Assembly (NCBI GenBank): GCA_000165345.1
Contig: CM000436.1
Location: 1,088,001-1,152,000 of the forward strand
Reading direction: 5' to 3'
DNA: 64,000 bases
The notes beneath the pieces were generated by a model that was not told where the DNA came from, ran no database searches, and saw only the letters and a list, made by a program, of their open reading frames with translations. Of this stretch, positions 6,664 through 56,415 are shown piece after piece; positions within the stretch are counted from its first letter, which is position 1; every line of letters begins with the position of its first letter. A program made the translations under genes and the position numbers.

Positions 6664-6736
6664 GGGGAACTAGCTCAGATGGTAGAGCGCTCGCTTAGCA
6701 TGCGAGAGGTGATCGGATCGATGCCGGTGTTCTCCA
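6664..6736 (+). tRNA. tRNA-Ala(AGC): tRNA-Ala, anticodon AGC, 73 nt.
   Basis: The acceptor stem GGGGAAC pairs with GTTCTCC, including the alanine-identity G3:U70 pair. The A-box is TAGCTCAGATGGTAGAGC. The anticodon loop is CTTAGCATG. The T-arm is GGATCGATGCC. There is a discriminator A and no intron. Confidence 0.9.
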
Positions 6737-6737
6737 C

Positions 6738-8854: not shown

Positions 8855-8950
8855 CAAAAAGTCAAATTTGACGAACAAACCTTTTCCTCTTAAAAAATTA
8901 TACTACCTAAAATCTTTAGGCGCCAACCCTACTTTTTTTTTTTTTCCTCT

Positions 8951-9005
8951 TACGTGGCACCGGTATTTTAGAAAACAATTAATAATTTACATGCATGTAA
9001 GCTTA
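8951..9005. promoter_or_regulatory. Composite element CTTACGTGGCACCGGTATTTT ... CATGCATGTAAGC, upstream of the acyltransferase-family gene.
   Basis: It contains an ACGT-core box (TACGTGG), the ACCGGT palindrome and GCATGCA. The same elements recur at 12023-12064 and 39666-39690. Confidence 0.4.
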
Positions 9006-12008: not shown

Positions 12009-12064
12009 TTTGGCGCCTAGTACACGTCATGTGGGGAGAAACCGGTACTATGCACAAGCATGCA
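12009..12064. promoter_or_regulatory. Module TTTGGCGCC - ACACGTCATGTGGGGAG - AACCGGTACT - GCATGCAT, about 420-480 bp upstream of the 9644-11587 gene.
   Basis: E2F-like half site, ACGT box, G-box (GTGGGGAG), ACCGGT palindrome and GCATGCA clustered within 56 bp. Confidence 0.45.
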
Positions 12065-14756: not shown

Positions 14757-14816
14757 ATGGCGCCTTATTTGCCCGCCAAACAGCGGGAACATTGTTTGGT
14801 ATTTTTAGGGGGGAAG
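14757..14816. promoter_or_regulatory. ATGGCGCC - TTGCCCGCCAAAC - AGCGGGAAC ... TAGGGGGGAAG, about 150-190 bp upstream of Sec24.
   Basis: Three E2F-type SSCGC cores in both orientations, plus a G-run. Confidence 0.45.
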
Positions 14817-20020: not shown

Positions 20021-20378
20021 TTCAATAAATAAGTAAATGCAAAAGTACTAATAATTCATTTAAAAGAAATAATCAAGTTATATTTAAATTTAAGTTTGTT
20101 AATTTTTTTTCAAACAATTTTATTAATTTTTTTTGAAAATCATTCCAAATTTAAACTAAATAAATAAAACTAATTTTTGTTGAAAGGAGAATAAAAAAGA
20201 ACAATTTAAGAAGATATAAACTAATTAATTTAAAACTCCTGTTTCACTCTTATTAAAAATCACTATGTTTTAATTAATTTTTTTTTAATGTTATTTAATT
20301 TACTATCTTGTTTTTTCTATATTCCTATTTAATTAACTCAATTTAGGAAATTCATGTAAAATTAAATCATGGAAATTG

Positions 20379-20414
20379 TGGCGCCGGCGCCAGGCATGTA
20401 ATATTTGGGGTCCA
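20379..20414. promoter_or_regulatory. 14-bp GC palindrome TGGCGCCGGCGCCA, then GGCATGTAAT and TTTGGGGTCC, about 300 bp upstream of the 20705 gene.
   Basis: Two overlapping GGCGCC E2F-like cores. The identical 14-mer recurs at 41743-41756. Confidence 0.45.
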
Positions 20415-20704
20415 GTCCTGACAGTAATAATGTGAGATCATACAAAAAATCAACAAAAAATTAAAATAGAAATTTGATTTTCAAGATAAAAAAGGAAATC
20501 AAATAGTTAATTAAGGAATTTTGTATTTTTTCAAAGTTTTAGAGTATTAGTCAATAGAATTTTAAAGATTTAGAAGGTAAAAAGGTAATTATAAATAATT
20601 AACTTACCAATCAATTTATAAAGATATTTTTCTAACTTCAAAAAAAAAAAAAAAGTTATTTAGAAAATAACTTTATTTATTTAAATATATGAAGAACTTT
20701 TATA

Positions 20705-23304: not shown

Positions 23305-23356
23305 TGCATGCACATTATCAAATATTTGAACTGGCGCCACTCTTTGGCGCCAACCG
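23305..23356. promoter_or_regulatory. TTGCATGCAC ... CTGGCGCCAC ... TTTGGCGCCAACC, upstream of the PI 4-kinase gene.
   Basis: GCATGCA plus two GGCGCC E2F-like palindromic sites. Confidence 0.45.
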
Positions 23357-27147: not shown

Positions 27148-27300
27148 TACCTTTCATTTACACTTGTATCGCTATTAATGATACAGGAATATTTCTTTTC
27201 TTTTAATAATAATAATAAAATCTAAAATATAACCTTATATTTTTATTAATTATTTCTCTCTTTAAATAAAATTCACTCTTTTTTCAACTATTATCCACAT

Positions 27301-27361
27301 GACGTCATTTTTATTGCATGCATGCAGTGGCGCAAATGATAACAATAATTTGACACGTAAT
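27301..27361. promoter_or_regulatory. Module GACGTCAT - TTGCATGCATGCA - GTGGCGCAAA - GACACGTAAT in a convergent (3'/3') spacer.
   Basis: Same element vocabulary as the upstream modules, but located between the stop codons of the PI4K gene (27147) and the 27525-30761 minus-strand gene. Confidence 0.4.
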
Positions 27362-39615: not shown

Positions 39616-39690
39616 ATGACGTGGGGTTGCGCGCGCAAATTATATTTTGAATTATAATATATATATACCGGTATCGTTATTACGTGGTAC
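39616..39690. promoter_or_regulatory. Module ATGACGTGGGG - TTGCGCGCGCAA (12-bp palindrome) - TACCGGTATCG - TTACGTGGTACC, about 430-500 bp upstream of the Nup155-like start.
   Basis: ACGT box fused to a G-box, a perfect GC palindrome, ACCGGT and a second TACGTGG box. The TACGTGG and ACCGGTA pair also occurs at 8951-8970. Confidence 0.4.
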
Positions 39691-40002: not shown

Positions 40003-41462
40003 TTACTCCAATACAGAAACAATGGGTTTTTGTCTTTCTGGAAGTGGTTTTGATGAATCTTTGGTATGATCTCTAAGATTCTGTTCTCTTTTTTTCTTGG
40101 CATTAATCTGCACAAGTTTTCTTTCTTGAATTGATTTAATCATCTTTGGCACGTGATGATGTCTGGAAATCTTTTTAATTTCAGGTAAATGCTGGTATCT
40201 ATCAATAAGCTGATTTCTATAAGCTAATGTTTGTCTTTCTCTATAAGATCTGGGTCCAAGTGGTTGACTGGCTTCATTTTTTCCATAAACGAACACAAAA
40301 ATCAGATGAGCCACTCACAATAAATNTACCATCAGCAGTNAATTTAGTANCCCATACATTATGCATTCTTTTTGNATGATAAATATCTNTANAAGCACCT
40401 TGGTCAATATTAAAATATTCTNATAGTATTATNTNTTACTACCAGCAACAAAAACTGTTTCCCCATTGGTATTATTANTCAACATCTAAAAACAGCATGA
40501 ACCAAAACCTTTTANATNTAAAATCTANCCAATGGTTAAGCCTTTTCTTCATAATCAAAATGTTATATAACATTGTAAATNATCATTAAGCAATATTGTG
40601 AAATATTAATNGGTTGGTCTGGAGGCGTNCCAACAAATATGCCATTTGGATTTTATTTTGATNAAANAACNNTNNNTNANNCTGTTGATGATCTTATATC
40701 AAATAGTCCAACAGAATTATCAGAAGAAACTGTTGCAACAATATGAGGCTCACTTGGATTAATTTTTGCAGAATAAACAGTTTCATTTCCCCATTCAAAT
40801 TCTTGTAATGGCGTACTTCTATGACGATCCCATACATGCAAACCACCAACTCCACTACTTATTAATACACCACTATTCCAATGGTGATCTAAACTATATA
40901 ATTGATTATTTGCAAGAAATGTAGTTTCAGGAATAATTGCTTTTGAAAAGCTAGAAATATTATCATATCCATTAAATACATCCTCAACATTTCCTCCATC
41001 TTCTAATTCCATTAAATTCATTTCATTTACAGATTCTCTTTTAGATATTTTCCACATTTGTAATTTCTTATCGTCACCACATGAAAATAAATGCTTATCA
41101 TTATTTGTAACACATAATCCACGTACTGCTCCTTCATGTGCTCTAATCATATATTCACATCTTCTGCTACCTGCTAAATTCCAATATCTAATAGTTCCAT
41201 CAAATCCACCACTATATATATCAGAAAGATGATGATGAGCTCTTGCTAAACATTGAACAGTATCTGAATGACCCTCAAATACAGAAACCAAAGGCTTTGA
41301 AAACATTTTCCTTAATTTTACGCTCATTAATGCTCTGCTATATTCTCTAGCTTTCTCAAAAGGGTGGATATTTGGATCAGGATTATGATAAATCCTTTGT
41401 ACGGAACCTTTCGATCTATCTTGATATTTATTTACATCTCTTTGTAATACTTTAACTTTCAT
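40003..41462 (-). CDS. SOF1 (DCAF13): U3 snoRNP / DDB1-CUL4 associated WD40 protein Sof1 (DCAF13). The reading frame is interrupted by an N-rich low-quality segment at about 40320-40690.
   Basis: The N-terminal piece (41462-40653) carries HPFEKAREYSRALMSVKLRKMFSKPLVSVFEGHSDTVQCLA...GGFDGTIRYWNLAGSRRCEYMIRAHEGAVRGLCV...SCGDDKKLQMWK. The C-terminal piece (40314-40003) carries the Sof1 C-terminal domain (RQTLAYRNQLIDRYQHLPEIKKISRHHHVPKMIKS). The spacing between them fits one gene of about 480 aa. Confidence 0.75.
40320..40690. other. Low-quality, N-rich assembly segment inside the Sof1 gene.
   Basis: Dozens of ambiguous bases (n). The ORF track breaks here. Confidence 0.9.
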
Positions 41463-41742
41463 ATTTTCTATCTATCACTATTTAATAGTTGCCTTTTTAT
41501 ATTATAATATTAGTAAGTTTAATTTTCATTTAGTTTACAATCAAGTAACTATAAACTTAAAAATCTTGTAATTATCTAGAAGTAATTGTAATTCAATATA
41601 TCTTTTTATATTATAACTCCTTTTAAACTTCTTTTGATGTACAAGGCCTACTTGATATTTTTTTCTTTTTCTTCTAAATCTTTAATTTTTTTTTTCCTCC
41701 AATGTTCCTTTTGACTTTTTACAAATTTAAAAAATAATTTGT

Positions 41743-41780
41743 TGGCGCCGGCGCCATCTGTCATGCGGACACGTAATAAA
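41743..41780. promoter_or_regulatory. TGGCGCCGGCGCCA (14-bp palindrome) - CATGCGGACACGTAATAAA, about 280-320 bp upstream of Sof1.
   Basis: Second exact copy of the 14-mer seen at 20379-20392, followed by a CACGTAAT box. Confidence 0.45.
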
Positions 41781-41975
41781 TTTTTTTTAAAAATTACTAA
41801 ATACATGCAATACTAAAAAATAAATAAATAACAATCGTAATGAATCATCATAAATTGACAATATTAGATATATAAATTAATAATTTAAGTTTCATATAAA
41901 TAAATTAAATTGGATTTCTGTTGGTGAATATTATCGTAGAAATGAGTTGAAATATAATTGATGTAGTTATTAATA

Positions 41976-50169: not shown

Positions 50170-50245
50170 TTTACCGCCAATTCCCCCCTTAATTTTTACA
50201 CCCTTGAAATTAATATTGAATTTAATCACATTGGCGCCAAATTTT
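50170..50245. promoter_or_regulatory. TTTACCGCCAATT ... TTGGCGCCAAATTTT in the divergent spacer between the 48175-49599 and 50927 genes.
   Basis: Two E2F-like boxes. The second is a perfect TTGGCGCCAA palindrome. TGTGGGGAAATGGG lies at about 50294. Confidence 0.4.
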
Positions 50246-54925: not shown

Positions 54926-55556
54926 GGATCCTACTTNATCTTCAGAATCTAATAATATTGCTGAAATCGCCCCAGCTTAANTTNCAATTCCCATTCTGGG
55001 AGATTATGTNNAAAAATCTTCTTTACACACTTTNCCCTTCATTTTTTTTTTTCAANTTATACTTCCCAATATATATATATATATATATATTTCTATAATT
55101 GTTTGAAACTTGTAATCCATTATTCAAATTATATTTATGTATTTGTTTTAAAATATTATTTGATATAAATTATTTTGATACATGCACGCATTACTTTGCA
55201 ATAATATAGCTTAAGATTCAGAGAATTTTCAGACTCCACATTTATTTAAAAAAATGCATTAATATATACAATAGCATAAAGATAATGTGAAGTGAAATTT
55301 TTTTGAATCTACTTTCTTTTAATTCTATGCAATTACAAAACAACTGGAATTCAAGTATATTGGTATAAGCAATTTTTTCTTTCTAATGATTGCTTAAACT
55401 TCTTCTTTACTTTCTTGGGTAATTTGAGTGCATATTTCAATAATTAAATGAATTATTGAAATATGCTAAAGTTAGAACAGGAGGAAAAAAAAAAATTACC
55501 AAATTCAAAGTTATTCACTAAAAATTCTTAATATATTTAATTTAAATATTTTTGTT

Positions 55557-55599
55557 TTGGCGCCAGACTTTGTTTCTACTAATAATAATGTGGGGAATT
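55557..55599. promoter_or_regulatory. TTGGCGCCAG ... TGTGGGGAAT in the divergent spacer between the 53438 gene and the Nudix gene.
   Basis: E2F-like GGCGCC core plus a G-box. Confidence 0.35.
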
Positions 55600-56415
55600 C
55601 CTAGTAAAAAAAAAAAATAATNTATNATAAAATAAAATTTGAATAATAATAATTTTTATATAAAATNAATGATTTTCTATAAGAGTNTTTGATTAANTTT
55701 TATTACATTTCCCTATTAAAACTGGTGTAGATTTTTCTAATTGAATGATTTTTTTTTGTTTTGGTTTAATTTAAAAGATATATATATTTGTGTATCTATT
55801 TATAGATTTATTTATAATTTTAATATTTAAATTAATTTATGAGGTTTTTTTTTGTTTTATTAATATAATTTTGATTAAATATTTTAAAATTAATTTTCCA
55901 GTTTTAAATTTTCTATTTTCTAGATGTTTTCTGCATGCATTGCATGCATTTTTATATATTTATAATTTTTCGTGTGGACGAAATTTTAAGTTTATATAAA
56001 AGTAAAATTTTAAAGAAAAATAATAGAAGATATTTGAGTAATATAATTAAAAAAAAATTGTTTTGATCAAACAAAATAATATTACAATTCATATTAATAA
56101 ATTCTTTTTTCTTCTTCTTTTTTCTCTTTCTAATTTCTTCTTATTTCTTAATATTATCGATTAAGAAAATACTACATATACATAAGAATTAAAATTGAAA
56201 TTAAAATGATTGATAATTTGAATTTGAGTTGAGTTAAGGTTTACATTTTATAATTTTCTTAATAAATGGAAAAAGAAAATAATCAGAATAAAAAGAATAG
56301 TCGAGTTGAGTTAATAAAAGAAAGAGAAAGAAAGAGAATGGAAGAAAGAAAGAGAGTGAAAGTCGTTATATTTTGAAAATAATTAAATACAAATAATTTA
56401 ATATTATTTAAAATA

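Follow-up and report, generated by a model that had tools for sequence, protein, structure and literature searches.

The stretch of DNA analysed here (64 kb, referred to as the window) comes from Cryptosporidium parvum, and the orthologues of its proteins carry Cryptosporidium spp. names. The 14-mer TGGCGCCGGCGCCA has two exact matches in the window, at positions 20379–20392 (copy 1) and 41743–41756 (copy 2), neither of which is assigned to a strand. An earlier reading, made from the sequence only, had reported the same 14-mer at these two sites. No third match was found in the window with up to two mismatches allowed, and the 14-mer was absent from 100 of 100 dinucleotide-preserving shuffles. 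It is composed of T, GGCGCC, GGCGCC and A, and is a perfect palindrome. The sequence-only reading had described it as a double, overlapping GGCGCC site. The site is indeed double, but the hexamers abut instead of overlapping (20380–20385 and 20386–20391 in copy 1). GCCGGC is formed at the junction of the hexamers and, in the window, is confined to the two 14-mers.

Copy 1 lies in the spacer between a 546-aa ORF and an 803-aa ORF, both on the plus strand. It begins 358 bp beyond the stop codon of the former, and the ATG of the latter (20705) follows 312 bp downstream. Copy 2 lies in the spacer between a 786-aa ORF and a Sof1-like gene, both on the minus strand, 219 bp from the stop codon of the 786-aa ORF and 280 bp upstream of the Sof1-like ATG (41462). 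The earlier estimates were about 300 and about 290 bp before the genes. The Sof1-like gene encodes a WD40 protein, the 803-aa protein is unannotated, and no function common to the two is evident. A 52-aa ORF that runs over copy 2 (41648–41806, minus strand), and is called in some Logan assemblies, was rejected as coding because frame-breaking indels occur there in other species.

The whole window has a GC content of 28.6%, and its non-ORF DNA one of about 23%; the earlier figure of more than 75% AT is corrected accordingly. GGCGCC is the top GC-only hexamer of the window (16/81). Outside the ORFs, it occurs 12 times in about 18.3 kb, against 0.044 occurrences expected from base composition, an enrichment of about 270-fold. 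If these 12 hexamers were scattered independently over the same 18.3 kb, the expected number of abutting pairs would be 0.007; two were observed (P about 3e-5). The claim that the match goes beyond chance is thus upheld.

Several further features of the window were recorded. Other C. parvum assemblies have the Sof1-like ORF unbroken, at 474 aa, but in the window it is 269 aa long; this seeming truncation is a sequence-quality artefact and not biology, because N bases and small indels fall within the gene. The window has 41 N bases, of which 26, along with the small indels, are located at 40326–40681 in the Sof1-like gene; the other places are 54937–55056 and 55622–55697. The locus tag in C. 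meleagridis, cmbei_8004490, points to chromosome 8, and cgd8_4490, a gene ID that may map to the window, is in expression cluster 90 (Oberstaller supplement, PMC3734150). A tRNA-Ala (AGC) gene at 6664–6737 is the sole RNA gene detected in the window by Rfam or ARAGORN.

Relation to the E2F motif of Cryptosporidium

An 'E2F' motif upstream of C. parvum genes was reportedly described by Bankier in 2003. In later work, TGGCGCCA, with the core [C/G]GCGC[G/C] and listed as motif 3 (DTTGSCGCCH), was the most over-represented upstream motif of C. parvum (PMC3734150), and the form [A/T][C/G]GCGC[G/C][A/T] is called E2F (PMC12246861). Of 200 co-expression clusters, 161 had the TGGCGCCA motif upstream, and the motif was attributed to E2F/DP, a family reported to be kept among apicomplexans by Cryptosporidium only (PMC3734150, PMC4117751). 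The E2F motif also dominates sporozoite ATAC-seq peaks and intra-polycistron spacers (bioRxiv 10.1101/2025.01.17.633476), and ranks first among the motifs that precede lncRNAs (PMC7840661). Cryptosporidium has two E2F and two DP genes according to the literature (PMC12246861; bioRxiv 10.1101/2025.01.17.633476), and none of them is among the genes of this window. The E2F genes are cgd1_1560 and cgd6_1430, and the DP genes cgd7_3650 and cgd8_1850. According to a 2025 review, very few putative regulatory components have been confirmed experimentally, and the binding of E2F/DP to any Cryptosporidium site is an inference (PMC12246861).

Each copy of the 14-mer contains two GGCGCC cores that fit [C/G]GCGC[G/C]. 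The outer flanks are T and A; inwards, each core is flanked by the G or C of the other core. On one side, copy 2 reads GTTGGCGCC, which fits DTTGSCGCC. At the inner flanks of the cores, the T/A tract that marks the canonical TTTSSCGC site is missing; the canonical 12-bp form is T-rich on its 5′ side and A-rich on its 3′ side. The label of an E2F-type site, given in the sequence-only reading, therefore agrees with the published descriptions of the motif (PMC3734150, PMC12246861), whereas the binding of E2F/DP that the label implies is presumptive. The doublets resemble the C. parvum E2F motif in their GGCGCC core with outer T/A flanks, in their non-coding enrichment, in lying within short upstream spacers, a few hundred bp ahead of the ATG, and in their co-occurrence with GCATG-type (AP2_1) and G-rich motifs. 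They differ from it in that two cores are fused, with zero spacer, into one 14-bp perfect palindrome. A search of a literature library found the 12-mer GGCGCCGGCGCC in none of its Cryptosporidium papers; the matches were cloning primers and unrelated papers.

Many other copies of GGCGCC in the window carry classical flanks, e.g. ATTGGCGCCAAAT at 50233 and TTTTGGCGCCAGA at 55559. Homotypic pairing of E2F-like sites is frequent as well, with clusters at 1460, 14759 and 23332. The first is the pair TTCCCGCCAAAA-N-GCCCGCCA at 1460–1480 (sites at 1460 and 1473). The second is a cluster of GGCGCC, GCCCGCC and GCGGGAA at 14759–14790 (sites at 14759 and 14772). The third, TGGCGCCA-N5-TGGCGCCA at 23332–23352, is located upstream of a PI4-kinase gene. 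All three share a 13-bp spacing. The PI4-kinase pair is conserved in six species, with its spacer bases freely varying, and in C. canis one of its GGCGCC cores is replaced by GGCGGG, which is the other E2F-like variant in the literature. Such a pattern is as would be expected of two protein-binding sites for a factor with E2F-like degeneracy. Like the doublets at copies 1 and 2, these spaced pairs are homotypic arrangements of the same motif in upstream spacers. In contrast to the doublets, which have no spacer, they show 13-bp spacing, a freely evolving spacer and interchange of GGCGCC and GGCGGG.

Conservation of the doublets and of neighbouring blocks

The orthologous spacers from other species were aligned, and identity was scored in sliding windows and compared with the spacer mean. 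The copy 1 doublet is present in five of six species (C. parvum, C. hominis, C. meleagridis, chipmunk genotype I and C. canis). In the sixth, C. felis, the site reads TGCCGCCGGCGCCC, with a degenerate left half and GCCGGC retained. The sliding windows at copy 1 reach identities of 0.94–0.96, against a spacer mean of 0.69. Copy 2 was compared in C. parvum, C. meleagridis, chipmunk genotype I, C. ubiquitum and C. canis, and 13 bases, GGCGCCGGCGCCA, are identical in all five. Among the 500 14-mers ranked by conservation in the 513-bp spacer, copy 2 comes first; the remainder of the spacer is only about 60% conserved. The deeper-branching C. ryanae has one GGCGCC at the copy 2 place (AGGGCGCCAAATGTAATGTCAAAG). 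Both copies are found at syntenic positions in the other species, and the bases alongside have diverged.

Judged from these alignments, both copies are under purifying selection. The doublet itself is not obligatory, given the single site of C. ryanae at copy 2 and the degenerate copy 1 of C. felis. Because C. ryanae has one core at the copy 2 position, the doublet is a member of the single-site family.

Copy 1 heads a near-invariant block of about 70 bp (to about 100 bp) in six species. The first element of the block is GCATGTAAT (20394–20402, plus strand), in which a GCATG (AP2_1-like) core is fused to CATGTAAT; it is conserved in six species, chipmunk genotype I having the variant GCATGTAGT. 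Next is TTGGGGTCCAGTCCTGAC (20405–20422, plus strand), which includes a G-box-like GGGG. This is the most conserved block of the copy 1 spacer (top window 0.97) and is near-invariant, C. canis and C. felis included. Further downstream is ATGTGAGATCATACA (20430–20444, plus strand), conserved as ATGTGA(GA)TCATACA in six of six species. Upstream of copy 1 lies the AP2_1-like TTCATGTA (20351–20358, plus strand), which is TTCATGCA in other species; the TTCATG of this block is invariant in six species. Two conserved mini-ORFs, ATG-TAA (20396–20401) and ATG-TGA (20430–20435), are also contained in the block downstream of copy 1, and they might affect translation if the 803-aa gene has its 5′ leader here.

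Copy 2 is adjoined by GTCATGCGGACACGTAAT (41760–41777, plus strand), the second-best window of its spacer (0.86). In the Sof1 sense this block reads ATTACGTGTCCGCATGAC and comprises an ACGTG and a GCATG element; the ACGTG is invariant in five species, and the GCATG is found in four and lost in C. ubiquitum. Conservation also extends to ATTACGTG(G/T)CCGCATGAC beside copy 2. The stretch from copy 2 to the Sof1 start contains GTAAAAAGTCAAAAGG (41707–41722, minus strand, given in the Sof1 sense), with a window of 0.82. In C. ryanae, GTCAAAG also follows the single GGCGCC.

A CATG/ACGT element near each copy had been pointed out in the sequence-only reading, and the whole had been called a defined composite operator. 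The elements were located as CATGTAAT at 20395–20402 (copy 1) and CACGTAAT at 41770–41777 (copy 2), on the same strand and the same side, and both belong to the conserved CAYGTAAT/GCATG neighbours. The window has 15 occurrences of CAYGTAAT where 4.85 would be expected, and the element adjoins E2F-like sites at 20395, 27354 and 41770. Its distance from the palindrome is 2 nt at copy 1 and 13 nt at copy 2. Relative to the downstream gene, it is on the gene side of copy 1 and on the far side of copy 2. Because the side is opposite and the distance differs, any composite operator is loose and not fixed.

A candidate promoter module and its alternatives

The 14-mers appear to be a real, selectively maintained cis-regulatory element of an ordinary, described kind. 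A real regulatory element is indicated because evolution has kept the 14-mer at both gene-upstream sites. Since the motif class is known and very abundant, the two copies are instances of a general promoter element and not a new operator. The abutting geometry is the sole new aspect, the motif class being already described. The explanation considered fairly probable is that the 14-mer is an abutting pair of E2F-type sites, forming the GC-rich anchor of a conserved promoter module with E2F/DP as its putative reader. The analysis shows the sequence, its enrichment, its position and its conservation between species, from which the protein that reads the site, the occupancy of both cores at once and the effect on transcription are inferred.

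In the mechanism proposed, the two GGCGCC cores, 6 bp apart from centre to centre, would act within a module in a head-to-tail intergenic spacer. The most likely reader would be the E2F/DP winged-helix heterodimer of the parasite, bound to one core, or to both cores via opposite faces of the helix. Two heterodimers at 6-bp spacing may clash sterically. Occupancy of the doublet would be raised in comparison with a single TGGCGCCA. Together with partner factors at the GCATG, ACGTG/CAYGTAAT and G-rich blocks, E2F/DP would open the chromatin, and transcription of the downstream gene (that for the 803-aa protein or Sof1) would be set in this way. Because the site is palindromic and lies in a head-to-tail spacer, transcription may proceed in two directions, and an antisense or upstream-directed transcript could possibly be driven too. 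A 6-bp tandem duplication of one site probably gave rise to the doublet, which selection then maintained; the single site of C. ryanae fits such an origin.

Directly adjacent E2F-type sites are known from the promoter of human RBL1 (p107), in which TTTTCGCGCG-CTTTGGCGCA are both required (PMC12564276). The Cryptosporidium doublets resemble the RBL1 sites, which are near the transcription start, in that two E2F-type sites are directly adjacent and conserved across species. However, the RBL1 sites repeat directly with a period of 10 bp, each with a T tract of its own, whereas the Cryptosporidium cores are 6 bp apart and related by a dyad. No T tract is found between the cores, so the doublets lack the separate T tracts and the spacing of about one helical turn of the RBL1 type. 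Cryptosporidium is reported to have no pRB orthologue and to lack most of the repressor-complex partners (PMC3734150), and for this reason the regulatory logic may differ from that of RBL1.

The doublets could also be a by-product of mutation, in which an abundant site was duplicated by 6-bp slippage and works like a single site, with the second hexamer carried along. The E2F-type motif is extremely common in this genome, the single core of C. ryanae at copy 2 and the degenerate left core of C. felis at copy 1 are in keeping with this explanation, and the doubled AP2_1 palindrome TGCATGCATGCA at 27316–27327 suggests that duplication of palindromic motifs readily happens. Nevertheless, both hexamers are invariant in five of five species at copy 2 and in five of six at copy 1 while the adjacent bases diverge, the identical geometry is found at two independent loci, and the number of abutting pairs expected by chance is very low. 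Such a by-product is considered unlikely. A lower probability still is given to the zero-spacer doublet being a distinct selected operator, read in another way than single E2F-type sites, either by two E2F/DP heterodimers on opposite helix faces or by a dedicated homodimer at GCCGGC; if true, it would mark a small promoter class, e.g. bidirectional or polycistron-internal promoters, with an expression programme of its own.

A quite improbable alternative is that the reader is a homodimeric factor other than E2F/DP, which recognizes all of the 14-bp palindrome or just the central GCCGGC; the doublet would then be a distinct element that bears no more than a likeness to E2F sites. The perfect 14-bp dyad symmetry would suit such a factor, and GCCGGC, unique to the two sites in the window, is retained in the C. 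felis sequence. On the other hand, the motif families published for Cryptosporidium include neither such a motif nor such a factor, the orthologous site of C. ryanae is a plain single GGCGCC, and the two known cores account for all of the bases.

The block at copy 1 (about 20378–20446), almost invariant over some 70–100 bp in six species, might instead encode a small structured ncRNA or belong to a folded 5′ leader, in which a 5-bp GC hairpin would be made by the palindrome. This is very improbable. No Rfam match was found at either site (gathering thresholds; E up to 10), and folding against shuffles on both strands gave z values of +0.93, +1.29, +0.22 and −1.43. The covariation term of the five-species consensus fold was +0.2, which is essentially no compensatory support, and the two loci are alike only in the palindrome and CAYGTAAT. 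With no Rfam match, thermodynamic signal or covariation, a small RNA gene (snRNA, snoRNA or single-hairpin H/ACA) was rejected. Finally, an origin of the 14-mer from a dispersed repeat or mobile element, as its end or as a remnant, is scarcely credible: it has the exact 14-bp identity and nothing more in its favour, and the dispersed-repeat family that the sequence-only reading had named as contrary to its claim was not found, because the flanks of the copies are unrelated and unalignable in either orientation beyond the palindrome and the short CAYGTAAT, only two matches occur in 64 kb even at two mismatches, and the positions are syntenic in species with otherwise diverged spacers.

The E2F-type motif appears to dominate the promoter architecture of Cryptosporidium, and the doublets are unusually clean test cases, being short, perfectly symmetric and conserved in at least five species amid diverged sequence, with the single site of C. 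ryanae as a natural comparator. They could serve as probes for CpE2F/DP binding and stoichiometry, and they would allow asking whether site number and spacing (6 bp vs 13 bp) tune promoter output. Otherwise, they are two more instances of an already described motif class.

Other motif clusters in the window

The convergent spacer at 27290–27361 contains a dense cluster of motifs, namely ATGACGTCAT (a CRE-like palindrome), TGCATGCATGCA, TGGCGCAAA and CACGTAAT. As the spacer is convergent, no protein-coding start is expected there, and an antisense or non-coding transcript could have its promoter in the cluster. A palindrome, ACCGGTA, is found near E2F-like sites (within about 50 bp) at about 8950–8960, 12045–12055 and 39670–39680, and also in the copy 2 spacers of C. 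canis and C. ubiquitum. None of the motif families that the Cryptosporidium papers examined give a name to corresponds to this palindrome. Upstream of a gene for a 2222-aa protein, the region at 39623–39686 contains ATGACGTGGGGTTGCGCGCGCAAATT, in which ACGTG and GGGG lie on either side of a CGCGCG E2F-like core. About 50 bp past ATGACGTGGGGTTGCGCGCGCAAATT comes ATTACGTG, making this another pairing of E2F and ACGTG motifs.
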